Under the pieces are notes generated by a model, which saw only the letters and a program-made list of their open reading frames with translations, searched no databases and was not told where the DNA came from. A stretch of DNA of 64,000 bases from a virus. The DNA lies in the UHGV virus genome UHGV-1366603; one strand, written 5' to 3'. This document shows, one piece after another, positions 5,468 through 55,924 of the stretch (position 1 is the stretch's first letter; every line of letters begins with the position of its first letter). The position numbers were made by a program, and so were the translations under genes.

Positions 5468-6835
5468 GTGAAAGACAGATTACAATACTTCGGTGTATCA
5501 GGGCGATTAATCAGTCACGATAAAATGTTACGTGACGCTTTCAAAGAGGCGGAGGAAAAGGGCTATAAACCGCCGATGATTATCAATGATGTTGCGAAAT
5601 ATAAAGACACCATTGAGACGTCAGAGTTGATTAACCGAATCTTACAGAACCGGATAGTCGACGAGACGCTAAATTCGGCACCTATTTGTAGTATTGATTG
5701 TGAAGCACCTATCGTTCATCGATATAATCTCGGAATGCGATGTCCTACCTGCGGCTATGTGGTGACAGAACATCGTATTGTTTCAGAAGTCTGGATTCGT
5801 GCCCCGGAGGAAATAGGCAACTTTATTAACCCACGATTCTGGTCGATGTTTAACGCTTTCTTCGGTTCTAAACTTAAGAAGTTTAACCGAAACAAAGTGA
5901 CCGTAGAACGTGGTTCTGATTTATTGATGTGGATGTTAGATCCGTGTTATAAACCTGATAAAGACGAAGGTACTCGATCCCGAATAATCAAACGCATCTT
6001 TAGCGAGTATCAAGTTCCACGCGGTATTAGGAATTTTATTGACCACCATCGAACAATATTCAATATCTTAACTTCTCCTGAAGTCTGGAAAGAAATTTAT
6101 CCACCAACGAAAAATAACCGATATGAGAGCGAACGTACTCGCTTAGAGTGGAAAAAGTTCTTCGAAGAACAATCGCACACTTTCTTTCCGGTTCATCTTC
6201 CAATCATTTCACCCAAACTGATCGTTACGGAGGAACGACGTCAGGGTATCTTTATCGATCCTGTTTATACCAGTGCAATAGACGCGGTTAAGAACATCGC
6301 GTTACTTTATACCAATGCACGACGCATCCCAACCCATTTCATTATTAGTCGCGCATTAAAAGCAAATCGTCAGTTAGCGTACTTCTATATTGACCATCGT
6401 CAGGAGGTAATGGAAGGTAAACCTGGGTTCTATCGTGCCAAGTTAGGTTCAACACACATCCCGTGGGGTGGTCGTGTAACAATCTCTCCAATTTCAGAAC
6501 CGCACGACGCTATGAAGGTTATTGCACCTTGGCGTTGGTTAGTGACGTTAGAATCTGTAGCTATTGAAAACAAACTCGGTCGACGGAACTTCACACCACG
6601 GCAGTGTGAACGTGTTATTGCATTTGCATCAATGCAGTACGTACCGTTGGTTCATGAAATTATCAACGAACTTATTAAGGAGTCTCGTGGCGGTTACGGC
6701 CTGATGATATCAGCGCTACGAAACCCGACGCTTGTACAGTTGTCTATTCAGACATTATTTATCTCAGCTGTTAACCCTGATGTTACACAGTGCTCGTTAC
6801 GTATCTCCGATCGCGTCATCAAAGCTCCGAATGCT
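5468..6835 (+). CDS. multisubunit RNA polymerase beta' subunit, N-terminal fragment, exon 1
   Basis: GTG start with GAGGA RBS. Zn-finger-like CxxC...CPTC; GFYRAKLG..WGGRVTISP matches beta' [38 protein letters not shown] matches NRAPTLHRLGIQAF; exon ends ...RVIKAPNA (last nt T at 6835). The track ORF runs on to 6967 only because the intron is in frame until a stop. Confidence 0.85.
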
Positions 6836-7185
6836 AAAATTTGGCCCACTAGACGGGAAACCTCTAGTGCGTATCCCCCGAATTGCTGGGAACTCCTAAA
6901 GCTTACGATCCCGACAGGGTGGCGAAAGCCAGAAACAATTCGTAAGATAGCCTATGCTAACCAATAATGCTAAGGGTTGTGATAATGGATAACCAGCAGC
7001 GATGAAAATCGTTCAACGACTATCGAAAGGGTAAAACCGAGTAGAGTAGCTGCTTAGTTTAGCGGCGAAGTGGGGGAGACCTACGGGTAGCAATACCTAC
7101 GGTTATGATATAGTCTGTGCCCATGTGAAAACATGGGAGGGTGTCATTGCACACCTGCTCCAAAAGGAATGGAGTGGACAAACAG
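6836..7185 (+). ncRNA. group I self-splicing intron, 350 nt, no ORF, interrupting the beta' gene inside NADFDGD
   Basis: 5' exon ends in U (6835) and the intron ends in G (7185). P-like aattgctgg (6881..6889), Q-like ccagcagc (6993..7000), R-like gttcaacgactat (7011..7023) and S-like gatatagtctg (7107..7117) with GACUA/UAGUC P7 pairing. Flanking hairpins cactaga/tctagtg (6847..6869) and cccatg/catggg (7120..7137). Splicing restores NA|DFDGDQ. Confidence 0.75.
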
Positions 7186-7425
7186 GATTTCGATGGTGAC
7201 CAATTACAGGTTAGACGTTTAGTCGATACCACGGAGATGGATTTAGCGCTGGCTTATCGTCCAGATAACGGATTTATGTCCAGCACAAACGTAGACGAAG
7301 TGTCTAGCAGCATGGTGTTACACAATGAGCTTATCAGCATGGAAAACCGTTTCTTACGCGATACCGAAGAAGATCTGGAGGCGGGTATCGCCATCGACTC
7401 AGAATTAATCTTAATGGCGGGGTAG
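7186..7425 (+). CDS. multisubunit RNA polymerase beta' subunit, N-terminal fragment, exon 2 (begins DFDGDQLQV...)
   Basis: In frame with track ORF 7141..7425; DFDGDQ...RPDNGFMSS matches E. coli beta' DFDGDQMAVH...SPANGEPII. The GTG at 7141 is taken to be inside the intron, not a real start. Confidence 0.85.
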   Translation, partial: DFDGDQLQVRRLVDTTEMDLALAYRPDNGFMSSTNVDEVSSSMVLHNELISMENRFLRDTEEDLEAGIAIDSELILMAG

Positions 7426-21466: not shown

Positions 21467-21492
21467 AGAGGGGCCTGCGCCCCTCTTTTTTT
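21467..21492 (+). terminator. intrinsic terminator
   Basis: agaggggc-ctgc-gcccctct hairpin followed by a T7 run. Confidence 0.85.
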
Positions 21493-26500: not shown

Positions 26501-26504
26501 ATTT

Positions 26505-26546
26505 AAGGGAGTCTTAATAGACTCCCTTAGCTTTTTCTTTTTTTTT
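26505..26546 (+). terminator. intrinsic terminator
   Basis: Perfect 10-bp stem aagggagtct/agactccctt with taat loop, followed by a long T-rich run. Confidence 0.85.
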
Positions 26547-28732: not shown

Positions 28733-29242
28733 ATGGCAACCAAAGACATTTCTACCCAAGATGCTCGTCCCGCTGCTGTTAAGCGCTCCGCAGAAGCGGC
28801 GGTAGCTTATAGCCAAGATGACTCTTATCAGGTAAACCTTATTGCTGCGCAGTTAGACGAAGCAGGGAATACCATCGGTACCAACAAACCGAAAAATACG
28901 TCGGAAGCAGACGACGCTTTCCGTAAACTGCATCAGTCTTTCCGTAGCCTGTTTGAACTGCGCGGTCAAGCGTTTATCGACGCTTTTAACGTTTTCGTTG
29001 CTGCTGCGATTAAACACAAGCGTAGCATCTTCTATTACCCGAATGTGAACTACCACCTGGATTGGTTCCACGATTCTGCTGAGCGTGAAACTTACGTGGT
29101 GTTTATCAACATGCTGGTACGTTTTGCTAACTCTCAAGATAAAGCAAACTTCGCACAGCGTGACAACGTTAACCGTCTGCTGCAACGTGTAACTGACCCA
29201 GAGCTGCAACAGCTGCTGGCGTACTGCTTCAACGCGGCTTAA
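28733..29242 (+). CDS. hypothetical protein
   Basis: taagga RBS; terminator downstream. Confidence 0.8.
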   Translation: MATKDISTQDARPAAVKRSAEAAVAYSQDDSYQVNLIAAQLDEAGNTIGTNKPKNTSEADDAFRKLHQSFRSLFELRGQAFIDAFNVFVAAAIKHKRSIFYYPNVNYHLDWFHDSAERETYVVFINMLVRFANSQDKANFAQRDNVNRLLQRVTDPELQQLLAYCFNAA

Positions 29243-29249
29243 TAAGCAT

Positions 29250-29290
29250 TACCCTACTCCCGAGAGGAGTAGGGTAGCTTTTATTTTTTC
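29250..29290. terminator. bidirectional intrinsic terminator between convergent genes (repeat copy 1)
   Basis: taccctactcc-cgaga-ggagtagggta hairpin followed by ttttatttttt; near-identical copy at 34616..34657. Confidence 0.8.
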
Positions 29291-31072
29291 TTAGTGAGTG
29301 GTTTTGATGTATTCAAACGGATCGGTAATAGCCTCACCTTGACGACGTAAGAACGCTTCTAACACAACGTTCTTATCCGGCAATAAGAAGAAGTCCGTTG
29401 CGATTTCCATTGCATTAACACGCCCTGCGGTAAGGTTAATCCCTACACGACGACGTACTTCTTCAGGAACACCATGAATACTTAGCAACTCGATTAACGT
29501 TGTTTCACGAGACTGGTTCATCATGTTCGTTGCAGAAGGATACGCCTGGGTTAAGTCCGCATCTGCGGTTTGCCCACGGAATGCAGTGTAGAAATCATCA
29601 AACTCTTTAATGATTCCTCGCAGACCGTTTTCCGCGTTCATACACGCAGTTAACGTAACAATCCAACCGTCCGTACCGATAACTTCTTCATCGAAATCAT
29701 TACGCATTGCACTACCTACACAACCGATAACCAATCCTTGTTCGTAAAGGTAGTAGGTGTAAGCAATACAAATACGTTTTGGTAACGAAGGGAAGATATC
29801 GTACATCGAATAACCTGCCAGTACGGAAATCGCCGAAGACAAGTCGTTCGTCTTTTTATCCAACAACACAATCATCAGGTTATCGAAGATGTTGTAAACG
29901 CAGTATTCGAGCGGGAACTCTTTCTGTGCTTTTAAGTGCCATTCCAGTTTCTCCTCGTAAGGCAGCTCTGGCAAGTCTAACTTGTTTAAGCCCAGTTCGG
30001 TTTCCAGAATAGCGTTAAGTTTGTAAGAAGGACGTTGACCTTCGTGAACCCTCAGTGAACGAAATAGACACATTGCATCCACACAGTAGAACGATGCGGT
30101 ACAATAAAGTACGTGCCACTGTTGTGAAGGTGCTTTGGTCAGTGATTTCGATTCCGTTTTCTTCGATGCTTCGTCTTTCTTGAAGTAAACACGACGGTAT
30201 TGTTTCGGTACATCGGGATGACAAAAGACGTCTTCCGGTGGAATCCCTGCGGCTTCTAGTGCTTCTAACATGCGTGAAATATCGAACTCGTGGTTCCATG
30301 CAACTAATAAGTCAGGTAGACGAGGGTGAATCTCTTCAAACATGCGTTGAATACAGCAGCCAGAGTTTAAGCATTCGTAAACGAAGATTTTATATCCAGC
30401 GATAACGTCCTTGATTTCGATCTTAGAATTGCCTTCTTTGTCTTTGCCACGAAAAGCAATTTTAGAAAGTAACTCCTGAGCACGTTTAATTAGTCGCGTT
30501 TCGAAGTTCTCACGACCACAACGCGCAACGTAGTCTTTCGTTGCGAAGAAATGAATTTCGTCATCCAAAACAAAACTCATAATCCAAGGGTCTCGAGATT
30601 TGTCTTCTTCTCGAGTTTCCACGTCGTATACACAAATACGGTTAGGTGAAACAGCGTTAGGCCATTTCTTTACATACCTTTCTTTAATCCAGCTGGTGAT
30701 AGGTAAGTCAGCCCAGTAAACGTACGGAGAGGTACAGACTTGACGTAATGAACGTTTTTTGTCAGGAAATCTTGCCCCTAAACCCATCTGGATAGTTTGC
30801 GACATCATCACATCCGTGGTCATGTATTCCTGACACTTGCTACGTTCTTCGTATTCTTTCTTTTCTTGATGGTTACGGTGTTGTGGTAAAGTAATGTAGA
30901 TAGGCCGTTTCAGATTTTCACGCATGACGATACGCGGGATGAATCTGCCATCTTTAGTATGGACGACCTCCTTTATGAGCACGAAGTCGTTTTCTTTCTG
31001 CTGATCGGTTGCGTACGAAACAAATTTGCACTCTTTGGCAATAACGTCTTCCGGTGCGTAATAGTTATTCAT
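29291..31072 (-). CDS. DEDDy-type 3'-5' exonuclease domain protein (possible proofreading or exonuclease subunit)
   Basis: Exo I VYDVETRE, Exo II WNHEFDISRM, Exo III YNIFD, in order. Track ORF 29291..31207; start moved to the in-frame ATG at 31072 (MNNYYAPE...). Confidence 0.6.
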   Translation of the reverse strand: MNNYYAPEDVIAKECKFVSYATDQQKENDFVLIKEVVHTKDGRFIPRIVMRENLKRPIYITLPQHRNHQEKKEYEERSKCQEYMTTDVMMSQTIQMGLGARFPDKKRSLRQVCTSPYVYWADLPITSWIKERYVKKWPNAVSPNRICVYDVETREEDKSRDPWIMSFVLDDEIHFFATKDYVARCGRENFETRLIKRAQELLSKIAFRGKDKEGNSKIEIKDVIAGYKIFVYECLNSGCCIQRMFEEIHPRLPDLLVAWNHEFDISRMLEALEAAGIPPEDVFCHPDVPKQYRRVYFKKDEASKKTESKSLTKAPSQQWHVLYCTASFYCVDAMCLFRSLRVHEGQRPSYKLNAILETELGLNKLDLPELPYEEKLEWHLKAQKEFPLEYCVYNIFDNLMIVLLDKKTNDLSSAISVLAGYSMYDIFPSLPKRICIAYTYYLYEQGLVIGCVGSAMRNDFDEEVIGTDGWIVTLTACMNAENGLRGIIKEFDDFYTAFRGQTADADLTQAYPSATNMMNQSRETTLIELLSIHGVPEEVRRRVGINLTAGRVNAMEIATDFFLLPDKNVVLEAFLRRQGEAITDPFEYIKTTH

Positions 31073-31143
31073 GTTTTCACTCTCAAATCTAGCGGCTGCT
31101 ATACTGATTTGTGGGTAATGTAATTTCTCAAAAGGAAACACAA

Positions 31144-32478
31144 ATGGGATACTGGCAAAATCACATTGCATCAGTTGCGGATGCAAAGGTTGTAGCCGCA
31201 GAATCAATTAAATTCCAAGATAAAAAGAAACTCGCAGAACTGGCAGACATTATTGCTAAATTTCGTGCAGCCGGAGACTTCAGTCCGGCCGGTTACGAGA
31301 GTTCTGGTGTTTCTGATTGGGTATTTAAAACCAACGGCATTAGCATTAACTTTAAGAACGGTAGCGAACTCGGATTATTCGACGTTGCCTTCGCAGGTGT
31401 AGAACCACCTAAGCTGGACGCGAACAGTCCGGTAATTGCGTCAATGGCGCGTGCACTGTACGCAGGTAATAAAGACCTGGACATGTACAGTAAGTTTATT
31501 AAAGAAAACGAACTGAACAGCAGCATTGACGATTCCAGTGCGAAAATCAGCGGCGACTTGAGCAAAGTCAGTTCCCCGCTTTATCTGACCCCGGTGCTGT
31601 TAGAGAAACTGGAGCTCACCGATTTGGAGGTTGCTGCGGTAATCCTTCACGAAGTCGGGCACGTTTATTATTACTTCCGTACGCTGATGCGTACCGTGGT
31701 AACGGATTTATTGGCAGACGCTGCGGCTAACCGCATCATGGAAAGCGAAGACCCAGCTGTTCGTTTACGTGTGGTTAAAGACGTTGAACGAATGCTGAAC
31801 ACGAAAGTGAATCAGCCTGAGACCATCTGCACTGAGTACAAGAAAGAAAACGTCTACATGCACCTGGTAACAGATTTGCTGTTAGACCGTCCGTTCATTA
31901 CCGGTAGTCAAGGCTTTGCAAACCGTACCTGGGAACGTGCTGCTGACGACTTCGCTGCCCGCTTCGGTGCGGCCCCGTACTTAGCTTCCGCGCTGTACAA
32001 AATGGAAACCAGCCCGTTCTATCTGCTGCGTAACTCGTCGTATATGAACATGGGTGTCCACCTGACGATTGAGTTGTTCCGTGTGACTGCGCTGATTGCC
32101 CAAGCTGCCATTCCGATTCTTCCGGTTATCTCTGTTACGTTCGGCATGATTCTGAACGACCCAGATAACACCATCTACGATCCGCCGCAGGAACGTTTTG
32201 AAGCGATGCGCCGTACGCTGGTAGAAGAACTGAATACCATCAAAGACAAAAACACGAAAGCGGCTAACGAGCAACGTAAACGTATTCTGGATGGTATCGC
32301 GGTAATTGACCGTATTCTCCTTACGGTTAAAGACAAAGATAACCTGTATCAGTTTATCTGGAAGACGCTGACACCGAAAGGGCGTCGTGACCGTGCTGCG
32401 GTGGATTATCAGCGCGCTATCGGGAAGTATATGTCGAATGACCTCCGTATCGCTTCTGCCATGTTTAACGTCGATTAA
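31144..32478 (+). CDS. putative zinc metallopeptidase-like protein (HExxH motif)
   Basis: AAVILHEVGHVYYY; track ORF starts at GTG 31111, ATG 31144 with aaaagga RBS preferred; divergent from the exonuclease gene. Confidence 0.55.
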   Translation: MGYWQNHIASVADAKVVAAESIKFQDKKKLAELADIIAKFRAAGDFSPAGYESSGVSDWVFKTNGISINFKNGSELGLFDVAFAGVEPPKLDANSPVIASMARALYAGNKDLDMYSKFIKENELNSSIDDSSAKISGDLSKVSSPLYLTPVLLEKLELTDLEVAAVILHEVGHVYYYFRTLMRTVVTDLLADAAANRIMESEDPAVRLRVVKDVERMLNTKVNQPETICTEYKKENVYMHLVTDLLLDRPFITGSQGFANRTWERAADDFAARFGAAPYLASALYKMETSPFYLLRNSSYMNMGVHLTIELFRVTALIAQAAIPILPVISVTFGMILNDPDNTIYDPPQERFEAMRRTLVEELNTIKDKNTKAANEQRKRILDGIAVIDRILLTVKDKDNLYQFIWKTLTPKGRRDRAAVDYQRAIGKYMSNDLRIASAMFNVD

Positions 32479-32492
32479 GTAAAGGTAAAACC

Positions 32493-32936
32493 ATGACGCA
32501 TAAAGTTTCTCTGAATTCGTTAGTTCTGGATTTTAAACGTGCTAACGAAGGTAAAGGTGTTCAGGCGCAGCGTGCCCTGACTGGCCTGGTTGCATTCTCG
32601 CTGGCGTATAATGCTGATATGCCGGACAACGGACCGTATGGTTCTAACGAAGTTTCACAAATCAAACTTCGACCACTGATGAAAAACGTGGTATCCGACG
32701 TTAACGAGCTTTACTGCGTTGACTTAGGCACTATTGAAGATCTGACCGTTGCGTTGTTCTGTAACCGTTACGACAGCGCCTGGGGTGGACGTCGTGCAAT
32801 TGAAAACTTCTCCGTACGTGAGATTTTCAACGAAGCCTTAGGTGATGACGTTTGGAACACCGTCAACCTGTGGCTGGAACGTTTTGTCGACGCAGTGAAA
32901 TTCTACATGGATGAAACGCGAGGCAAATTATCATGA
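32493..32936 (+). CDS. hypothetical protein
   Basis: taaaggtaaaacc RBS before ATG. Confidence 0.8.
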   Translation: MTHKVSLNSLVLDFKRANEGKGVQAQRALTGLVAFSLAYNADMPDNGPYGSNEVSQIKLRPLMKNVVSDVNELYCVDLGTIEDLTVALFCNRYDSAWGGRRAIENFSVREIFNEALGDDVWNTVNLWLERFVDAVKFYMDETRGKLS

Positions 32937-34606
32937 GCATGGAAATGACAGCAAACATTGCACAGCCGCAATGGAAACTCGACGAACTTCCAACCATTAT
33001 CGAACAGCGAATGGAAGAACGTATCGATTCTGTCAGCCAGCTCAACCTCTACATGCAGCGTAACGAAGCCGATTTGATTTACGGTTCACGTATTATCGCG
33101 CAGATTGAAGCGATTCTTCGTGAAGTTCGTAAAGCGGGTCTAAACCGTGACGTTGCCGTAGCGACGGAATCTTTGCGTCCGGGTACCATTCCGAAAGCGG
33201 TGCAGAGCATCCTGACGTCGAACTACAGCCGTACTCATCAGAAAGAAACCGTCATCGCGCTAGAGTCTTACGCGAACTTCGGTAAGATCAGTCTTATCGT
33301 GATGGTAATGATGGGGATTATGAAAATCCTGAACTGGATTATCAGTAACGCTGTACCGTTTGCAGGGGCTGCTGACGTGGATGGGGACGAGTATCGTGAC
33401 AAACTCTTAGAGAAGATCGATGCGGTTCCTTTCATTGAACGTCTGAAAATCACCGCGCTGAAAGAAGCGTATATGGAGGCGTCAAAAGGACTGAAAGACG
33501 GTGAATTGAATAACCTGGAACTGGCTATTCTGATGGCGGATGAAGTCCTGACGAACATGAACGCAGAAGACCTGTTGAACAAGCTCAGTGCGGCACTGGG
33601 CCGTTCTCCGTTCGTAGGGATGTTTAAAGACTACACGAAACGTCGTCAGAACGAACAGCAGGTTATCCACGATATCCTCGATACGTTGCTGCGTACTAAT
33701 ATCGGTTGTGCGGTATTCAGTCAGCAGGTTTGTGACGAAGTGTACAAAGGTTTACCGGCGGACGTTCGTAAAGCAGGTGTCAACATTCCTAACGAAGCGT
33801 TCTACCGTCAGATGGGAAGAAACCTGGAGAGCTTCTCCGCAGGGTTAAAACGTCTAGAACAGTCGTTAAAAGACCTCAAGATGTATTACTTGTCAGGTGA
33901 CCGCACACTGGGCACAAATCAAGAAAACCGCATTAGTGCAACGGGCATCGTTCAAGCACTGGCGTTGCTTAACGGTGAAATCGAAATGGCGTTAACCGAT
34001 TTTGCATCGTGCCGTGGTGCACCGCTACCAACGATGATGGTGAAATCCGATCGTGGCTTAATCGGCTATTCGTCTCGCGAGTTCGGTAATGGTTTCATCA
34101 TCGCTTCTGCGGGGGTTAACTCGTATTTCGGTTCTGCGGCTAACATGGAAATTATGCGCCAGGAGCTGAGCTTTACCAGCGGTGATTCTCGTGAACTGTT
34201 AGCGTGTCTGATAACGTTAGTCCGTAGCGGGATTACTAAAGGACCAGCCGATACGTCTCTCGACCGCTTCAAAGTGGTGGAGAAACAGATCGAGAAAGTG
34301 GTTAGCCAGTTGAAAGACATGTCTCGCCAATCGCGTTCTGGTATGAACAGCAAAGCTTGGCAGATGATGGAACAAGCGTTCCGTGACGAAGCACAACGTT
34401 CAGAACTGTACGAACTGAACTTTGGTCGTGAACTGACGACGATGACCGTGATGGACCCAGACCGAAACGTGTGGGATTCTGTTGCGTTTACGACGGAACT
34501 GATTAAGTCCTGGACAACTGCCGCCGGTGCGCTGGCGACGATTCTGAAACGGGCTAAGAACAACCCGCTGGTAAAAGGTGGGAAGTTTAATAAACTCGTC
34601 GACTAA
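32933..34606 (+). CDS. hypothetical protein (one predicted transmembrane segment)
   Basis: ATGA overlap with the upstream gene; hydrophobic stretch ISLIVMVMMGIMKILNWII. Confidence 0.8.
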   Translation: MSMEMTANIAQPQWKLDELPTIIEQRMEERIDSVSQLNLYMQRNEADLIYGSRIIAQIEAILREVRKAGLNRDVAVATESLRPGTIPKAVQSILTSNYSRTHQKETVIALESYANFGKISLIVMVMMGIMKILNWIISNAVPFAGAADVDGDEYRDKLLEKIDAVPFIERLKITALKEAYMEASKGLKDGELNNLELAILMADEVLTNMNAEDLLNKLSAALGRSPFVGMFKDYTKRRQNEQQVIHDILDTLLRTNIGCAVFSQQVCDEVYKGLPADVRKAGVNIPNEAFYRQMGRNLESFSAGLKRLEQSLKDLKMYYLSGDRTLGTNQENRISATGIVQALALLNGEIEMALTDFASCRGAPLPTMMVKSDRGLIGYSSREFGNGFIIASAGVNSYFGSAANMEIMRQELSFTSGDSRELLACLITLVRSGITKGPADTSLDRFKVVEKQIEKVVSQLKDMSRQSRSGMNSKAWQMMEQAFRDEAQRSELYELNFGRELTTMTVMDPDRNVWDSVAFTTELIKSWTTAAGALATILKRAKNNPLVKGGKFNKLVD

Positions 34607-34657
34607 AAAAAGAAGTACCCTACTCCTTTTCGGGAGTAGGGTAGCTTTTTATTTTTC
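34604..34657. terminator. bidirectional intrinsic terminator between convergent genes (repeat copy 2)
   Basis: A7 tract, then taccctactcc-ttttcg-ggagtagggta hairpin, then tttttatttttc. Confidence 0.8.
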
Positions 34658-37612
34658 TTAGTCTGCGGTGGTGTCGTGACGGTTGTAAACGATAACAACA
34701 TCGTCTTTCAGACCGATGTCACCGCTGGCTTCAATATCCAGTTTCTTACCAATCGTTGCGCGTGCAGCTTCGGATACCACAGTAAACAGACGCATGTCTT
34801 TGTCTGGCCCCATCGCATCCAACTCAACGCCGATAATCGACGTGTCAAGCGTTTCGCTGAGCTTATTACCAATCTCTGTTGCCGAGATAGTAAGATGTGA
34901 ACCCAAGTAGTCGTTGATAACTTGAGACGTTTTCTTACGAATCTGCGTTAACAGATCGCTGTTGCTACGGTTAGCCGCTGTGAGGTAATAACGAACGGTA
35001 AACTGGTTTTCAGCCGGTATCGGTGTAACCACCCCGTCTTCGGTACGCGCATCGATATAACCCATCGTGGTGATAGGAACGAAATACCCTTCCGTACGCT
35101 CTAACAACATCGGTTTTAACGTCGGTAGAACCACGGTCACGTAGTTAACGATATTCTCAATAACCGCGTTCAGATAGGATTTCGCAGACGCTGTGGTAGC
35201 GAATTTATAACGTGCGTCGAAGACTGCCATTTCACTACGGAACTTAATAGAACGTGATTTCGCAATCTTAGGATTACCGTACTCGTCTTTTACTAAGTCC
35301 CCTTCGCGGTGCAGGATAATCTGCTGGCCGGTTTCGTCAAGCTTAGGATCGCCTTTACGGTGTTCATAAGTGATTTGTAGCGGTGGTGTACGGCCTGCGT
35401 CGTACGTGTAAACCGGAACCCCATTCTCATCACGTTTCACCACGTCAATTTCCCACGTTGCTAATACGTCTTTGTCGTAATACTCGTAGTTGATGCTGTC
35501 AGTAACAGCACGAGCTTTACGCCAATAGTACGTCATCGCTTTACCCAGTTCGATTTTGAATATCTCGTGGGTAATACCGATAGCGTCACGAGAAGGCGCT
35601 GTGATTAACGTATCCATCTCTACACGTTCGTAGTTCCCAGGGTAATAACCTGTGCAACCGTAGAACAGGTTAAAATCTGTCAACAGAGGAACGGGTGTTT
35701 CCGTTGGGTTACTTCCGTTAATGCGCGTGTTGGTGAGTACCAGTTCGTCGTTACGGTCAACGTCCAGGTTAGTTTCCAGCAAGAACTCCCAAACACGTTC
35801 GCTGCCCTGCTTACCGACTAACGTACCGTTAATGTACGCCAAGGTGTTATCGGAATTACGAGGGCGGAAAGACAGCTGTGCAAAGACTTGGTCATCAGTC
35901 AGTGCCTGGTAAGGTGCTTCTGACTTCGTAACCGTACGCAACACATAACCTGCTTCCGTTTTCTCGATAGTGTAGTCAGCGGTAACGACGCTGAGCTCCG
36001 TCGAGACGTTGGTCGCAATAAAGCGTTTGGAGTTTAATAGCGGTTTATCCAACTGGTAAATACGCACGTCAATCGCTTTGTTGTTAATATCAACAACGTA
36101 ATGGAACGGTGTAAACAAATAACGGTTCGTGTTTGCTGCGTTAATCAGGTCTTCCTTACGCATGGTCTTCGCTAACACCGTCATTTCGGCATCTACAGTC
36201 AGACTGGTATCCGTAAAGCGATACAGCGTATCAGGAAGAATGGTCAGGCGATTACCGTTGACTTTCACTGTCGGAAGATTAACCAGCTCGTTCCAGGAGA
36301 AATAGAACGGGGCAGTAATCGTACCAATCGGTGAACTGACGTTAGCAATTGTCGATTCCAACATCGGTGCTGTCATGAAGTACGTACGACTGGTCACGTA
36401 GTCGTTAGGTTTAGACAACGTGAGACCGTAATCGGAAACCGTAGCTTCAAGCTGCTTTTCTGTCACAGGCAGTTTACGAGCACCTACGGCGTTGTTAACA
36501 ACGCGAGTACGTAAATCGCTGAACGAAAGCTGACTACGACCACCCGACAGCATCTTCCCAGCTTTTGCTGCAAGCTGTTTAATAGAGAACGCTTTAATCG
36601 GGTTGATATAGTTCGCGTCGTACTCTTCGTTTAAATCGCGTAGACTGAAACTATACTCATCAGACGGGTATGCAGAGATGTCCAGCTCCAACGGCCCTAA
36701 GGTCGTATAGACGTCCATCCTGATAGTCCCACTGACGAGATTCTTCGCCATGTAAATAGATGGAATCGTACAACGGATGTTACCGTTACCCACCTGAATC
36801 AATGCTGTTGGTGTGTTCGGGTCGTAAACATCGCGACTGTGGGTGTGCTGAATCTCTACCCACTTGTTGCTACCCGTTGCCTTCATCCAAACACGAACGT
36901 AGAAGAATTTGTTAGTGTAAGCACGGGTCATGACGAAAGTATTGTTACCTTCGACGGTGTTACTTTCTTCTTTCACCGCATACTGCATAACCGGGATATG
37001 AATAGCCAGCAGCTGTGACGACGTTGTGTTAGTGGACGTTAGTTCCCATTCCAGTGCGTTCGTGGAAACTGGTGAAATCGGTGATTGTGTTTCAGTAATC
37101 CACAGTACCTGGAAAGCCGGGTTCTCGTTCGTTCCGTATGGAAGTACACGGATTTCAATTGGATATTGAATAGCAAACGTGTAACCAGAAACCGTAAAGA
37201 CCGTGTCACGTGGGATAACGACTTTACGAACCCCCGCGATTTGCAACGGATACGCTTTCGAGATTAAGCTGTCAACGTCAATTAACAGTAACAGTTCTGT
37301 AGTAGCAGGCTGCGCAAAGACGTCAACGTAATCCACGTCTGACATGTGTCGGAACAGGTCATCGTACGTCTGTGCCATTGACGGGAACGTTTTAGGAATA
37401 GATTCCTGGAGCCCCATCAACGTCGCGTGCCCCATCATTGTTCCCATTTCTGCCAAATAAACGACAGGGTCGGTAGGGTCACGGAGATAAATCTGACCAT
37501 CGGCATCTTCAACATCTTGAAGCTGGTTTAGCAGCATTGTCTGCATCGCCGCAGGGTTGTGTGCGAACAGCAGAAGTTTCTTTGCCAAAGTATCGTAAGT
37601 TGTTGAACTCAT
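34658..37612 (-). CDS. hypothetical large protein, 984 aa (possibly virion structural)
   Basis: Long minus-strand ORF; its ATG overlaps the stop of the upstream minus-strand gene. Confidence 0.8.
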   Translation of the reverse strand: MSSTTYDTLAKKLLLFAHNPAAMQTMLLNQLQDVEDADGQIYLRDPTDPVVYLAEMGTMMGHATLMGLQESIPKTFPSMAQTYDDLFRHMSDVDYVDVFAQPATTELLLLIDVDSLISKAYPLQIAGVRKVVIPRDTVFTVSGYTFAIQYPIEIRVLPYGTNENPAFQVLWITETQSPISPVSTNALEWELTSTNTTSSQLLAIHIPVMQYAVKEESNTVEGNNTFVMTRAYTNKFFYVRVWMKATGSNKWVEIQHTHSRDVYDPNTPTALIQVGNGNIRCTIPSIYMAKNLVSGTIRMDVYTTLGPLELDISAYPSDEYSFSLRDLNEEYDANYINPIKAFSIKQLAAKAGKMLSGGRSQLSFSDLRTRVVNNAVGARKLPVTEKQLEATVSDYGLTLSKPNDYVTSRTYFMTAPMLESTIANVSSPIGTITAPFYFSWNELVNLPTVKVNGNRLTILPDTLYRFTDTSLTVDAEMTVLAKTMRKEDLINAANTNRYLFTPFHYVVDINNKAIDVRIYQLDKPLLNSKRFIATNVSTELSVVTADYTIEKTEAGYVLRTVTKSEAPYQALTDDQVFAQLSFRPRNSDNTLAYINGTLVGKQGSERVWEFLLETNLDVDRNDELVLTNTRINGSNPTETPVPLLTDFNLFYGCTGYYPGNYERVEMDTLITAPSRDAIGITHEIFKIELGKAMTYYWRKARAVTDSINYEYYDKDVLATWEIDVVKRDENGVPVYTYDAGRTPPLQITYEHRKGDPKLDETGQQIILHREGDLVKDEYGNPKIAKSRSIKFRSEMAVFDARYKFATTASAKSYLNAVIENIVNYVTVVLPTLKPMLLERTEGYFVPITTMGYIDARTEDGVVTPIPAENQFTVRYYLTAANRSNSDLLTQIRKKTSQVINDYLGSHLTISATEIGNKLSETLDTSIIGVELDAMGPDKDMRLFTVVSEAARATIGKKLDIEASGDIGLKDDVVIVYNRHDTTAD

Positions 37613-41012: not shown

Positions 41013-41573
41013 ATGTTTGAGCACGATAGTCCCGATTTTAATGTGGCTGTAGAGCGCATTAAAACCTATATGTCGATTTTATCAAAAAACCCAATCGACA
41101 CACACGATGACGAGCTTATTCACAAAACGCTGGAAGCGTGTGCGGTTGTATTACCGTACTTTCGTCTGTTAGCTGCTGACTCTGTGCAGCAGGTATTATA
41201 TGACGAATATCCGCAGGTCGGATTTACCTTTAATACGTTTTATAACGAAAGCGTAGCCTTCCTGCTTGATGGTAAACGACGCACTGTGACGTTAGGACAG
41301 TGGTCCGTATTGCTGTCGTCGTACATGAATGATGTTCGCAATACGAAGAACGTTGAACAGACGGGCTCATTGGGTGCACGTCTTCTTGCTGCTGCGTTTG
41401 GTCGCCGGGGTACTGTACGTAATATGGGTTCCGCTCACCAGTCTGTTGAGTGTAGCAAACGTCTTTTATCTTATGCAGACCATGAACTGCTGGCACGCTG
41501 GATGACACGCCCGAACGGGTTGTCCGACATGATCTCGTCGTTAGCAGTGTTTTTGAAAATCGCACGTCCCTAA
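41013..41573 (+). CDS. hypothetical protein
   Basis: taggagag RBS before ATG. Confidence 0.8.
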   Translation: MFEHDSPDFNVAVERIKTYMSILSKNPIDTHDDELIHKTLEACAVVLPYFRLLAADSVQQVLYDEYPQVGFTFNTFYNESVAFLLDGKRRTVTLGQWSVLLSSYMNDVRNTKNVEQTGSLGARLLAAAFGRRGTVRNMGSAHQSVECSKRLLSYADHELLARWMTRPNGLSDMISSLAVFLKIARP

Positions 41574-45044: not shown

Positions 45045-45074
45045 AATGCCCTCCGTAGAGGGCATTATTTTTTC
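45045..45074 (+). terminator. intrinsic terminator
   Basis: aatgccctc-cgta-gagggcatt hairpin followed by ttattttttc. Confidence 0.85.
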
Positions 45075-52847: not shown

Positions 52848-53663
52848 ATGAAAACTATCAAAGACTATTTTCCGACCGGCATCAGTAGCGACCATTTCGT
52901 ACCAGCGGATTCGATGGAAATCATCAGTAAGTCCAGTAGCGGTGAGTTTGTTATTTACCTAACTAATGTAGGAGGTAGACCGAGTTTCATTCTCCTCGAG
53001 CCTAAAGAAGTAAGTGTCTGTACGGTTGCTGTAAATGTTTCTTGCAGCCTTAGCTGGTTGAAGTCCAGATTGCTACGCTTGCTCGTGGTTAATACTGACC
53101 CAGTAGTACGCTTAGAGCGATTAAAAGCAATGAATGAAGTTATCCTGGGTTTTCTGCTACATCCTATTTACGGTAACCCTAAAGTCGCAGAAGCAATACA
53201 AAACGTACAGTTGGTGGAGTGGAGTGATATTGACTACGAGCGTGCCTCCGAATTTGTATTACAGGCAGACGACAACACCGGTGTGTTCTCACGAACGTTA
53301 GATAATGTAACGGTAACTGCACGTGTGTTGTTTGGTTTACAGCGCGTAGAGTTTGAATTGAAACACGTCTACGTGAGCAATAAACCGGAGATGGTGGAAA
53401 CGTTGATTCGTGCGTTCGCATACCCGTTAGATGGTGAATGGGAACAGCAGATTAATGATGCGTTAGGAGCCATGCATTTCCTGGCTGAAACGTTAAGGAA
53501 GGATGAGAAATTGAAAGGTCGTGTTTATCCAGAACACGATTTTGTTTGTGAAGAATGTGGAGCACAGTATCAAATCCGTGTTCCTTTAACCGGCCTAACA
53601 TTCCCGCAAGCCAACGTGCAATGTAAGGAATGTGGCCATGTTCAATACGTAGCGATTAAATAA
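52848..53663 (+). CDS. hypothetical protein with C-terminal zinc-ribbon-like CxxC...CxxC
   Basis: ttggag RBS; CEECGAQYQ...CKECGHVQY near the C-terminus. Confidence 0.8.
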   Translation: MKTIKDYFPTGISSDHFVPADSMEIISKSSSGEFVIYLTNVGGRPSFILLEPKEVSVCTVAVNVSCSLSWLKSRLLRLLVVNTDPVVRLERLKAMNEVILGFLLHPIYGNPKVAEAIQNVQLVEWSDIDYERASEFVLQADDNTGVFSRTLDNVTVTARVLFGLQRVEFELKHVYVSNKPEMVETLIRAFAYPLDGEWEQQINDALGAMHFLAETLRKDEKLKGRVYPEHDFVCEECGAQYQIRVPLTGLTFPQANVQCKECGHVQYVAIK

Positions 53664-53669
53664 AAGCAA

Positions 53670-53712
53670 CCCCTAATCCCGAAAAGGATTAGGGGTACAC
53701 TTTATTTATTTT
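53670..53712 (+). terminator. intrinsic terminator
   Basis: 10-bp stem cccctaatcc/ggattagggg followed by a T-rich run. Confidence 0.85.
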
Positions 53713-53737
53713 CGCTCTTAAAAAAGGAAATTGTGTC

Positions 53738-53893
53738 ATGAAGAATGTTAATGCAATGCTTAACCAGTCATTTGTTAACCAACAGCGTTTTCAGGAACGC
53801 TTAGCACAACTTAAAACACAACACAGACCGCCACAACAAAGAGTGGTTAAGAGCAAGTTTGGCGAAATGGTTTTCGAAAGAAAATCTTTCTAA
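53738..53893 (+). CDS. hypothetical small protein, 51 aa
   Basis: aaaaaggaaa RBS; ORF MKNVNAMLNQSF...; its own terminator follows. Confidence 0.5.
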   Translation: MKNVNAMLNQSFVNQQRFQERLAQLKTQHRPPQQRVVKSKFGEMVFERKSF

Positions 53894-53902
53894 TAACCGT
53901 TA

Positions 53903-53929
53903 AGGGGGTGTGACAGCACCCCCTTTTTT
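53903..53929 (+). terminator. intrinsic terminator
   Basis: gggggtg-tgacag-caccccc hairpin followed by a T6 run. Confidence 0.8.
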
Positions 53930-54052
53930 ACGCTTTAACTTTTCCAAAGAGAAGTTAAAGCAAGGTACGCTGCCACAACAGCGTACCTTTTACAACACCA
54001 TTACGTTTCCGTAATGGATTTCTTTAATCACCCTACAAAGAGGGCTTATACC

Positions 54053-54361: not shown

Positions 54362-55924
54362 TCAAAAGAGTTCGTCTCCCATACCGCCTGTAAAGACGTT
54401 AATCGACGATGCAGTTACTGTTTCTTCTTTATCGCAATCCCAAGGCAGAATGCCAACTTCACGGAAAGGTATTACTGTATAATGGTAAGCTTCTTTAGTA
54501 TCGATAATTGTACGGTGTTTACCACGTTGTACTTCTAAGTAACTATGTCCATTGACAACACGTTTGTTAAAATACATCTCACCGTCAGCTTCGTTATCCA
54601 AGCTGGAGCAGTTATCGTAAAGACCGCGACCTGGTAAGTTCTTGCAGAAACTTGCTGGGTCTAACGCTTTTAATTTTTTGCCTTCTGGTGAGATTTGGTG
54701 TGGTGCTAACAAGAAACCACGGTTACGTACTACCTGGATGTTTCGAGCGATACGATAAATTTCTTTAATGTCGCTACCGGCAATCCCGTTACCGTGACCT
54801 GCTTTACTGATAGTCCCGAAATAGTCTCCGCGAATCCCAGCTACATGATAACCTCGACGCTTTAAGTCCAGTATTAAGTCGTTTAAGTAGTGTATTTTAA
54901 AATCTGAGTTTGTGTGTTTCTGAAAGATGTATTCCCAACCGTTAGCCCGCATTTTACTACAGAGGTAGTCCGACATTTTTGTGTTGTGCAAAGCTTTCTC
55001 TTCGTCGGTAGCGTTTTCAGAAGCAACCATAACCGGTGCTTCACCTTCAAAATGACCGTAGAGCGCTTGGTACGCATACGCCAAGTTAACGTCCAGTTCG
55101 TTCTCTAAACTTAAATCGAGAATAACCGGCTGCAAATCCCCTTTAACGTTTTCCATTACTTTTTCAGGTGTATTGAATACCGGAATACTGATAGACAATA
55201 ACAGACTAAAAAGTGATTTACAGTTAAAAGGCAGTGCAGGCATTAGCCAAAGTTCTTCGGTAATCCCTTTGTTACAACCCAGCATCTGGTTAATGGCTTT
55301 CCATCCGGTACGTAAACCGTTACCCGCCGCTTTCTTACTGATGGAGTCGAACACGTGTACGAACGGTGCACGGTTATCCGTAATAAGTTCGCCTACAAGT
55401 GAGGGAATCTTATTATGAGAGCGTTCACTGAACGTAGAGAGACTATCTCTGAGGTCGTTGAGCGCCGTTTGTAAATCAACGCGCGTTTCGGTTCCGTTCA
55501 GTGCGCCTAACGTACGACCTAATTTTTGTTTCAGTTGTACGCCTTGAATAGCTTGACGTAATTGGAAGTAGTATTGTGCTACTTGACGGTTAAGATGCTC
55601 GATGCGTGCTTCTGGTTCTTCTGGAATATCATCTTCCAGGAATTTGGTAATCGTATCGTATAGAGGACGTATTTGCGTAGTGGCCAATTTCAAACGTTTC
55701 ATGACGTTTGTGTGGTCGTAAGGCATACCGCCGTCTATGATGGATGTGATGATATCCTTGATTTCGACGAGGGCGGCACGTTCGTCACCTTCCTCTACGT
55801 AATCAGGAAGCTTAGCCTCTAACAGCACTTTTCTTATGACCTCATGATCCTTCTCAGGGTCGGTCAACAGACTTTCAGTGTATAGTGTGGCTAATGCGGT
55901 TATCAACATCATTTTGTTATTCAT
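54362..55924 (-). CDS. hypothetical protein, 520 aa
   Basis: Minus-strand ORF with AAGGA RBS and a hydrophobic N-terminus (MNNKMMLITALATLY). Confidence 0.8.
   Translation of the reverse strand: MNNKMMLITALATLYTESLLTDPEKDHEVIRKVLLEAKLPDYVEEGDERAALVEIKDIITSIIDGGMPYDHTNVMKRLKLATTQIRPLYDTITKFLEDDIPEEPEARIEHLNRQVAQYYFQLRQAIQGVQLKQKLGRTLGALNGTETRVDLQTALNDLRDSLSTFSERSHNKIPSLVGELITDNRAPFVHVFDSISKKAAGNGLRTGWKAINQMLGCNKGITEELWLMPALPFNCKSLFSLLLSISIPVFNTPEKVMENVKGDLQPVILDLSLENELDVNLAYAYQALYGHFEGEAPVMVASENATDEEKALHNTKMSDYLCSKMRANGWEYIFQKHTNSDFKIHYLNDLILDLKRRGYHVAGIRGDYFGTISKAGHGNGIAGSDIKEIYRIARNIQVVRNRGFLLAPHQISPEGKKLKALDPASFCKNLPGRGLYDNCSSLDNEADGEMYFNKRVVNGHSYLEVQRGKHRTIIDTKEAYHYTVIPFREVGILPWDCDKEETVTASSINVFTGGMGDELF

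Follow-up and report, generated by a model that had tools for sequence, protein, structure and literature searches.

The closest described counterparts of the hairpins reported here are the intrinsic terminators of the phiKZ-family jumbo phages. In phiKZ, 61 such terminators have been mapped, with the motif 5'-BCCYCCCCHWWDGGGRRGGBYTTATKYYGT-3' (Putzeys et al., 2024; PMC10914365), and motif A of phage 201phi2-1 is similar to it (PMC11512511). Bidirectional intrinsic terminators between convergent genes have also been reported (Ju et al., 2019, as cited in PMC10204088), and the T50 terminator of phage LUZ7 was validated in both orientations (PMC10204088). A literature search returned nothing specific on terminator mapping in SPN3US or on 'loop inversion' in terminators.

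The window analysed here, a 64,000-nt stretch of the UHGV virus genome UHGV-1366603, derives from an SPN3US/Asesino-like jumbo phage of the Chimalliviridae, the family in which Seoulvirus is placed, and has ∼73% nucleotide identity to the SPN3US/Asesino group. The window carries genes for RNAP beta-like subunits, and PHROG RNAP and DNA polymerase genes flank two intergenic hairpins, sites A and B, which are the subject of this report.

Architecture of the hairpins at sites A and B

The features of the two sites, together with a diverged relative of the hairpin found elsewhere in the window, are as follows.

28733..29242, plus strand: gene upstream of site A (ORF list), with an RNAP beta-like subunit gene just upstream of it; PHROG 7825 (phrog_7825, E 2.6e-65), by synteny the homolog of SPN3US gp223 and Asesino gp60
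29250..29276, both strands: site A hairpin, TACCCTACTCC / loop CGAGA / GGAGTAGGGTA, with a perfect 11-bp stem (pattern match, fold, terminator scan, CM)
29277..29290, plus strand: site A T-tract tail GCTTTTATTTTTTC, which includes TTAT and reaches the TAA of the minus-strand gene
29291..31207, minus strand: converging gene at site A, DNA polymerase (part), homolog of SPN3US gp222 (phrog_3011, E 4.8e-252; annotation of the Asesino and SPN3US orthologs)
32933..34606, plus strand: gene upstream of site B, PHROG 8131, fast-evolving homolog of SPN3US gp219 (ORF list, PHROG match, divergence)
34603..34615, minus strand: site B 5' A-tract CTAAAAAAAGAAG, which overlaps the TAA of the plus-strand gene and, read on the minus strand as CUUCUUUUUUUAG, is the U-tract for the converging transcript
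34616..34643, both strands: site B hairpin, TACCCTACTCC / loop TTTTCG / GGAGTAGGGTA (pattern match, fold, CM)
34644..34657, plus strand: site B T-tract tail GCTTTTTATTTTTC
34658..37612, minus strand: converging gene at site B, a 984-aa protein, PHROG 3248, homolog of SPN3US gp218 'putative virion structural protein 2' (ORF list, PHROG match)
53669..53696, minus strand: diverged relative of the A/B hairpin, ACCCCTAATCC / TTTTCG / GGATTAGGGGT followed by TGCTTTTATTT (sequence comparison, CM)

The pattern TACCCTACTCC-N3-8-GGAGTAGGGTA has exactly two matches in the window, the two hairpins themselves, and none in 100 dinucleotide-preserving shuffles of it. The initial annotation had described two copies with a common 11-bp stem and 3' flank, each between a plus-strand gene and a converging minus-strand gene ending in TAA. 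Both copies are present as quoted, the strings running to 29295 and 34662, five bases beyond the ends assigned to them, and the ORF list bears out the gene arrangement. At each site the hairpin fills a gap of ∼50 nt, starting 7–9 nt past the stop codon of the plus-strand gene and ending 14 nt ahead of that of the minus-strand gene, which is TAA in both cases. The sequence GCTTTT(T)ATTTTT follows directly 3' of the stem at both sites, and from the stem to the minus-strand stop A and B are identical at 40 of 48 positions.

As in the phiKZ and 201phi2-1 motifs, the 5' arm at A and B is G-free and pyrimidine-rich, the 3' arm is purine-rich, and the stem is followed by a short spacer (GC) and an A-interrupted T-tract (TTAT). 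Unlike the phiKZ motif, the stems are 11 bp long with A/T positions (TACCCTACTCC) rather than 7 bp of C/Y, and loops of this kind span 4–6 nt and are of the CGAA/TTCG type; the class is read here from sequence, whereas the phiKZ 3' ends were mapped. The strict phiKZ motif has no match in the window at three or fewer mismatches, so that the likeness lies in the architecture and not in the sequence. The SPN3US group also resembles phiKZ and 201phi2-1, members of the same family, in having many terminators per genome on one template. G-free 5' arms occur in 17 of the 33 long-stem SPN3US terminators (C 49%, G 10%), and tails containing TTAT in 19 of 33 SPN3US terminators and six of ten in the window. 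Loops of the TTCG/CGAA type predominate in SPN3US, TTCG being the commonest (10/33). Tuerk and co-workers reportedly found, in 1988, CUUCGG (UUCG-tetraloop) hairpins in intergenic regions of phage T4; these resemble the SPN3US group in being phage terminators capped by extra-stable tetraloops. The hairpins at A and B differ from them in their 5–6-nt loops (CGAGA, TTTTCG), phage family and polymerase.

The predicted RNA folds are stable on both strands: −21.9 (plus) and −23.3 (minus) kcal/mol at site A (z −4.1 and −5.3) and −25.1 and −22.6 kcal/mol at site B (z −4.5 and −5.5), with none of 200 shuffles as stable in either case. A and B are the top terminator-like hits of the scan on both strands. 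A U-tract follows the stem directly in A(+) (GCUUUUAUUUUUU), B(+) (GCUUUUUAUUUUU) and B(−) (CUUCUUUUUUU); on the minus strand of site A it is poor, the tail reading AUGCUUAUUA. Across 20 related copies, 98.6% of helix cells are paired, six of the 11 stem pairs have changes in both bases and none has a change in just one, and the covariation score was matched by none of 500 shuffles. In the SPN3US ortholog of site E, one of the further sites described below, pairing is kept through two G.U pairs, which can form only in plus-strand RNA. Covariance-model (CM) scores are 64 bits for site A and 68 (plus) and 54 (minus) bits for site B; the hairpin at 53669–53696 scores 53 bits but is itself a member of the training set. 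It agrees with A/B at eight of nine loop-proximal stem positions, has the same loop and tail, and its changes are matched on both arms. Rfam gave no gathering-level match at A or B (AbsR25, at 25 bits against a gathering threshold of 47, is noise), and membership of a known RNA family was rejected.

Stability, U-tracts, position and covariation thus support, as far as sequence can, the original reading of A and B as terminator modules. Judged by sequence, the term 'bidirectional' fits site B, which has the layout of the described bidirectional terminators: a palindromic hairpin between convergent genes with an A-tract on its 5' side (AAAAAAAGAAG; eight A in the upstream 10 nt) and a T-tract on its 3' side (seven T in the downstream 10 nt), from which activity in both directions is predicted. 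It suits site A poorly; that hairpin has no 5' A-tract, its T-tract serves the plus strand only, and it is therefore at best weakly bidirectional.

We consider it probable that A and B are factor-independent transcription terminators of the stereotyped phiKZ-family kind, with one stem homogenised in this lineage. Direct observation covers the structure of the hairpins, their gene context and synteny, their covariation and copy number, and the inversion of their loops; termination itself, the polymerase and the mechanism of homogenisation we infer. Jumbo phages of the phiKZ family have multisubunit RNA polymerases of their own, by which their genes are transcribed. The nascent RNA would fold into a hairpin of 11–12 bp, its 5' arm made up of C, U and A with no G and its 3' arm rich in purines, and the UUUUAUUUUU tract directly after it would cause the polymerase to pause and release. 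The stem is perfectly palindromic and can therefore form in RNA from either strand; site B, whose A-tract and T-tract lie on opposite sides of it, would stop both converging transcripts; site A would efficiently stop the plus-strand transcript only.

Copies in related phages and loop inversions

Reuse of the module, noted initially for two copies, goes further. In close relatives the exact stem occurs at up to five sites per genome, A and B, a third copy beyond the window (site C), and sites D and E; site C was sought within the window and is absent, with no match to its flanks there. Sites A, B and C have the same loop, CGARA in one orientation or the other, and a GC + T4-5 A T4-6 tail, while D and E share the stem alone with them and differ in loops and flanks. 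Sites A–E map to the SPN3US terminators at 41184, 46630, 177902, 137590 and 195862, whose stems are unlike one another. A and B are syntenic terminator positions in Asesino and at least eight other genomes, phiEaH2 and Caitlin/ChrisDB-like phages among them, and the junctions are occupied in every relative examined except 11741, which has no hairpin in the site-A interval. Among at least 11 genomes, A and B have the same stem only in the lineage of the window. SPN3US has identical stem sets of its own (CCCTCTTACC three times, TACCCACTCCC twice), with four identical 9-mer pairs observed against 0.03 expected. An apparent replacement of the site-A stem between two relatives (L093 and L098) was discarded as uninformative because the genomes are only 75% identical. 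Among 185,579 bacterial and archaeal genomes the exact hairpin has one match, in an unrelated context; mimicry of a host element was rejected, the exact hairpin being absent from representative bacterial genomes bar one unrelated MAG contig.

The loops of A and B do differ, as first noted, and the difference is accounted for by a loop inversion plus a 1-nt change: once the B loop is reverse-complemented, A and B agree at 43 of 47 positions. Orthologous loops occur as exact reverse complements within an unchanged stem at both sites (CGAGA/TCTCG at A, TTTTCG/CGAAAA at B) and at further terminators, among them 26504, 11824 and 45045. In the lineage of the window, inverted loops were found in seven of 27 comparisons with stems of at least 9 bp, at ∼2.5% divergence and with five of the seven in one contig, against none of 92 with stems of 7–8 bp (Fisher p = 1.6e-5). 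Cultured isolates (SPN3US versus SPLA1a) also show a flip, at a much lower rate (1/95), and flips recur in independently assembled data (IMG/VR, ENA ERZ808044, OBXH, CYGL); a metagenome-assembly artefact is therefore unlikely.

Small hairpin-loop inversions occur in chloroplast spacers. Template-switch mutations that invert hairpin loops have been described (Monttinen & Löytynoja, 2022; PMC8794818), and the flips at A and B resemble them in that the loop is an exact reverse complement, the perfect stem is unchanged and only long perfect stems are affected. They differ in their high frequency in this lineage and in their setting, dsDNA phage terminators rather than rRNA, miRNA and plastid spacers. 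A template switch, or else recombination between the two arms, would readily invert the loop of a long perfect hairpin in place, which would explain why the loops of A and B differ.

Origin of the shared stem

The occurrence of five syntenic sites with differing stems in SPN3US points to lineage-specific homogenisation, not to mobility, and suggests that stems can be homogenised within one genome. Pre-existing and already similar terminators at A–E would have been brought to one stem, the likeliest route being short-patch gene conversion, or copying from a template, among terminators that have A-rich and T-rich flanks in common, and the near-identity of A and B would follow from this. The genera are about equally distant (64–78% DNA identity between genera in the polymerase genes), and for that reason homogenisation, ancestral identical copies and convergent selection are not rigorously separable.

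A broader version of this account, which we regard as rather unlikely, would make terminator hairpins hotspots of templated rearrangement. Loops would invert about ten times as often as a single site is substituted, and whole stems would be copied from one terminator to another far away, one stem having spread to five fixed sites; the stem might be read in a sequence-specific manner by the transcription or mRNA-handling machinery of the phage, and a clonal lysate might contain both loop orientations.

It is quite improbable that identity of the stem reflects its sequence-specific reading by a phage factor (a termination or antitermination factor, a 3'-end-protecting or mRNA-export protein, or a nuclease), several genes then sharing one tag, and that termination alone would leave the identity unexplained. 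None of the 22 stem positions differs at A, B or C between genomes whose flanking genes are only ∼72–86% identical (P ∼0.007–0.03 per site if stem positions were neutral), and the asymmetry of pyrimidine and purine arms is conserved from phiKZ to the SPN3US-like phages. Nucleus-forming phages must, moreover, export their mRNA (PMC11077065). However, the unrelated stems at 21467, 23496, 26504, 58776 and 53669 are equally conserved in the same genomes, so that the pairing constraint alone accounts for slow stem evolution; stems at orthologous sites vary freely between genera, and the genes that carry the stem (DNA polymerase, virion proteins and others) have no evident functional link. ChmC, the one characterised RNA-binding protein, was considered as the reader and rejected, published eCLIP placing its binding near start codons, with no motif (PMC11077065).

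Independent convergence, or retention of ancient duplicates, within a restricted terminator 'vocabulary' would dispense with transfer between sites in the lineage. The arm alphabet is reduced, and single compensated indels from TACCCTACTCC give TACCCACTCC, TACCTACTCC and TACCCTCTCC; tails and loop types are class-wide, which makes shared flanks weak evidence of common descent, and D and E have the stem alone in common. Yet, even when the composition of the arms is allowed for, 3e-5 identical 11-mer pairs would be expected in the window and 0.004 in SPN3US, five identical sites occur in a single lineage whereas the stems at A and B are unlike in all other genera, and A, B and C share loop (CGARA or its reverse complement) and tail as well. 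We give this explanation a small probability.

REP/BIME, Correia and other miniature palindromic repeats are short palindromes with copies at intergenic sites, where some of them serve as terminators, and A and B recall them in recurring at such sites; A–E differ in being syntenic across genera, with no mobility signature, presence/absence variation or termini beyond the hairpin. A mobile or recombinogenic repeat of the MITE/REP type, inserting at gene junctions and bounding exchangeable modules, would fit the identical 22-nt palindromic core at three to five places per genome, the intergenic positions and the presence of the same stem variants at non-orthologous sites in different genera, but it is highly improbable and largely refuted: all five sites are syntenic terminators in SPN3US, at junctions occupied in relatives (except site A of 11741), no target-site duplications or element termini were found beyond the hairpin, D and E share only the stem, and the hairpin is nearly absent from prokaryote genomes. 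The proposal that the copies mark module boundaries and recombination points fails on the same syntenic sites and on two further results. Identity profiles to relatives show no step at A or B, and no mosaic boundary was found at either site. CM scores fall gradually from 63 to 20 bits over the SPN3US terminators, including those outside the training set, a continuum in which no discrete repeat family separate from ordinary terminators was found.

The hairpins at A and B are not a new kind of element. They extend to the enterobacterial SPN3US/Erwinia branch what has been observed experimentally in phiKZ and 201phi2-1, with most terminators of these chimalliviruses built on one asymmetric template (pyrimidine-rich arm, purine-rich arm, TTAT tail). 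With five syntenic sites, each compared across more than ten genomes, they provide a comparative set that shows the stems of terminators changing in steps that are each fully compensated. This is relevant to how transcription units are annotated in jumbo phages and to where compact terminators, possibly bidirectional ones, may be sourced, and it carries a caution for comparative genomics: a cluster of four to six 'substitutions' in the loop of a terminator is a single inversion event.

Sequence and layout of sites A and B

The region belongs to the jumbo-phage group of SPN3US, Erwinia phage Asesino and phiEaH2, with only ~73% identity by megablast, and its gene order matches Asesino gp60-gp65 and SPN3US gp223-gp218. 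Seoulvirus (SPN3US) is classified in the Chimalliviridae, the nucleus-forming phiKZ-like family. The close relatives are IMG/VR and metagenome contigs of ~151-228 kb that are 97.3-97.5% identical to the window, and a second group is ~72-86% identical. Two hairpins with the same 11-bp stem lie between convergent genes.

Hairpins at sites A and B and flanking open reading frames (from the ORF list)
28733-29242 (+): ORF flanking site A
29250-29276: site A hairpin, TACCCTACTCC-cgaga-GGAGTAGGGTA, tail GCTTTTATTTTTTC, then TAA of the minus-strand gene
29291-31207 (-): ORF flanking site A
32933-34606 (+): ORF flanking site B
34616-34643: site B hairpin, TACCCTACTCC-ttttcg-GGAGTAGGGTA, tail GCTTTTTATTTTTC, then TAA of the minus-strand gene
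34658-37612 (-): ORF flanking site B

The two sequences quoted in the initial annotation occur in the window exactly as given, which confirms the observation, although each extends five bases beyond the end assigned to it. The stem pattern has two matches in the window versus none in 100 dinucleotide-preserving shuffles. The intergenic gaps, 48 nt at A and 51 nt at B, are wholly occupied by hairpin and tail. A PHROG search identified the neighbours of site A as a protein of unknown function and a DNA polymerase, and those of site B as another unknown protein and a 984-residue protein that is annotated in SPN3US as a virion structural protein; a gene for an RNA polymerase (RNAP) beta-like subunit lies just upstream.

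The PHROG 8131 gene upstream of site B (window 32478-34606, +) evolves much faster than its neighbours, with 72-74% nucleotide identity to the group of related contigs 113438 and 29126 (80-86% for adjacent genes), decreasing to 61-66% in its 3' third. A group I intron (6825-7137, +; Rfam RF00028, 61 bits, E 5e-13) is located inside the RNAP beta-like subunit gene (5468-7401) and splits the homolog of SPN3US gp243 into exon 1 (to ~6835) and exon 2 (from ~7138-7186). The intron is found in the window and in contigs 078609 and 113438 and is missing from contigs 095954 and 29126 and from SPN3US, so that its presence varies among close relatives; no obvious homing-endonuclease ORF was noticed with it.

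Evidence for termination and the terminator class

As RNA of either strand, hairpins A and B have folding energies of -21.9 to -25.1 kcal/mol (z of -4.1 to -5.5), and no shuffled sequence was as stable. The two sites also account for the four best terminator-like matches of a consensus scan between 26 and 38 kb. Site B carries AAAAAAAGAAG upstream as its A-tract side and a T-tract downstream, which is the standard arrangement for a two-way terminator at a convergent gene pair; such a layout has been validated for LUZ7 T50 (PMC10204088). Site A has a T-tract on the + strand only and its minus-strand transcript would end in AUGCUUAUUA, so that the description of both sites as bidirectional holds, by sequence, for B, with its symmetric A/T tracts, and not for the one-sided A.

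The 20 aligned copies comprise sites A, B and C of five genomes in the lineage, A and B of Asesino, six SPN3US sites and the hairpin at window 53669, and 98.6% of their stem cells are paired. Both partners have changed in six of the 11 pairs and a single partner in none; 0 of 500 shuffles reached this covariation. The SPN3US ortholog of site E (195862-195885), TGCCCTCTCC-TTCG-GGGGAGGGTA, is flanked by two + strand genes and represents the hairpin in a one-directional form; its helix is maintained by two G.U pairs that form in + strand RNA only, pointing to selection on the RNA itself. No Rfam family was detected at sites A and B.

Perfect hairpins with T/A runs were surveyed in the window and throughout SPN3US, and the terminators of this phage group proved to be stereotyped. 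Their stems of 10-12 bp are preceded by an A-rich 5' flank (AAAATAAAAG), the 5' arm is built of C, T and A with little or no G, the 3' arm is purine-rich, loops of the TTCG/CGAA type predominate, and the tails read (G)CTTTTATTTT, with TTAT in 19 of 33 in SPN3US. The 5' arms of SPN3US contain 49% C and 10% G, and 17 of 33 are G-free. The same architecture is seen in phiKZ, in which 61 experimentally mapped intrinsic terminators share 5'-BCCYCCCCHWWDGGGRRGGBYTTATKYYGT-3' (PMC10914365), and in motif A of 201phi2-1 (PMC11512511). The strict phiKZ pattern had no match in the window with up to three mismatches allowed, and the claim is therefore limited to shared architecture and family context and does not extend to membership of the motif. 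The asymmetry of the arms is strong, with the pyrimidine arm first, and phiKZ follows the same rule. From these sequence features, A and B are predicted to be intrinsic terminators of the chimallivirus type, one of them bidirectional. The initial annotation described a real feature and is borne out in its reading of a reused terminator module.

Extent and origin of stem reuse

A scan of viral contigs located the stem at a third position in relatives, site C (...gttaactaaaaaagat, hairpin, gcttttattttaaatg), outside the 64-kb window, and a metagenome scan added sites D and E. Only the stem links D and E to the first three sites, as loops and flanks are different there.

Exact copies of the stem in related contigs (~222-228 kb)
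CYGL01000001: five
SKEP01000003, OBXH01000029 and QZLY01000003: four each
JACXXQ010000002 and ERZ808044: three each

A diverged relative within the window (53669-53696, -) retains the loop and tail and has compensated stem changes. Four hairpins (53669, 53902, 53962 and 53998) fall inside 350 nt (53669-54017), in an unusually long and structured intergenic region between a gene at 52848-53663 (+) and a DnaB-like helicase gene at 54362-55924 (-). A covariance model trained on the 20 copies gave 64 bits for A, 68 for B and 53 for 53669, each of them a training member, and no more than 26 bits for the rest of the window. In SPN3US its scores decrease gradually, from 63 to 20 bits, across many terminators, non-training ones among them, so that the 'repeat family' has no sharp boundary against ordinary terminators.

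Identical stems also recur in SPN3US: CCCTCTTACC-TTCG three times (67345, 94154 and 180981), TACCCACTCCC twice (137590 and 186744) with reverse-complementary loops (CTTAC versus GTAAG), and ACCCTACTCC twice (113924 and 160009). Four pairs of identical loop-proximal 9-mers were observed there versus 0.03 expected from arm composition, and 3e-5 identical 11-mer pairs are expected in the window; stem reuse is thus genuine, not due to chance and habitual in these phages. By tblastx of the flanks, the five sites correspond to five terminator positions in SPN3US.

SPN3US counterparts of the five sites (position, junction, stem)
A: 41184, gp223/gp222, CCTCTCTACC
B: 46630, gp219/gp218, CTACCCTCTCC
C: 177902, gp065/gp064, CTACCTACTCC
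D: 137590, gp108/gp107, CTTACCCACTCCC
E: 195862, gp041/gp040, TGCCCTCTCC

All five SPN3US stems differ from one another, and A equals B only in the lineage of the window among at least eleven genomes. The remaining genus-level lineages lie at similar distances from each other (64-78% DNA identity in the polymerase gene between genera), and their variants are single, fully compensated indels away from TACCCTACTCC. The same variant may occupy non-orthologous sites: CTACCTACTCC occupies A in 2706796186, B in an Asesino-like contig and C in SPN3US. A, B and C additionally have in common their loop, CGARA or the reverse complement of it, and a GC plus T-run tail. Convergence or ancestral retention is a possible origin of the identical stems; since stems are replaced on such a time scale, the survival of five unchanged identical copies in one lineage only is less likely than homogenization of the stem at the five syntenic sites on the branch leading to the window's lineage, which the sequence comparison favors. 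Homogenization would most likely have proceeded through gene conversion over short patches, or through templated copying, between terminators with common A/T-rich flanks. Stem conservation at A, B and C is 22/22 (P of ~0.007-0.03 per site if neutral), which is owing to the pairing constraint; all terminator stems, related or unrelated, are kept between the two sub-lineages, so that conversion after their split need not be invoked.

Terminators occupy A and B also in Asesino, phiEaH2, Caitlin/ChrisDB-like, Wellington-like and other genomes. Over both sites the close relatives match the window at a level 97-98%, and in the group with 84% polymerase identity the figure varies by gene with no step at the hairpins. 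This synteny and the absence of a step speak strongly against a mobile element or mosaic boundary at A and B and, together with the graded scores, leave the earlier suggestion of repeat elements marking recombination boundaries unsupported. Among 185,579 representative bacterial and archaeal genomes, the exact hairpin turned up only in one unrelated MAG contig ('Candidatus Fimenecus sp.', JAZSKT010000006.1; L049, 5232-5259). About ten unrelated metagenome contigs have one copy each (L050, L052, L053, L060, L061, L065, L068, L070, L073 and L075). The loops between TACCCTACTCC and GGAGTAGGGTA in unrelated contexts differ (e.g. AAAAAA, ATAT and GCTCGAGC), and these single copies look like independent terminators or palindromes, roughly at chance level for the database size.

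Inversion of the loops

In contig 3300045988_095954, which is 97.5% identical to the window, A has the loop TCTCG in place of CGAGA and B has CGAAAA in place of TTTTCG; both are exact reverse complements in untouched stems. The flipped B loop, CGAAAA, resembles CGAGA of A and makes the two sites 43/47 identical, so that the homology of A and B extends across their loops. Flipping is a general phenomenon and is also present at the unrelated terminators 11824-11845, 26504-26529 and 45045-45066; a change of ACT to AGT at 16709-16735 is ambiguous because the loop has only 3 nt. Stems of at least 9 bp show flips in seven of 27 comparisons versus none of 92 for stems of 7-8 bp (Fisher p = 1.6e-5), with five of the seven in the single contig 3300045988_095954. 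Independently assembled contigs carry the flip at site B (ERZ808044) and at site C (OBXH01000029 and CYGL01000001), and 113438 and 29126 have opposite loop orientations at site B. Loop inversions are also seen in the sequence pairs L019/L020, L021/L022 and L025/L026.

Among cultured Seoulvirus isolates flips are rare (one of 95 comparisons), SPN3US and SPLA1a differing by CTGGAA/TTCCAG at 67871, and the TTCG loops of co-directional terminators show none. An established route to loop inversion is a template switch, or recombination between the arms of a perfect inverted repeat (PMC8794818), and the loop differences described here probably represent template-switch inversion. A literature search found no paper describing loop inversion in phage terminators. 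Homogenization of stems within a genome and frequent inversion of loops would be two modestly interesting evolutionary features of these terminators.
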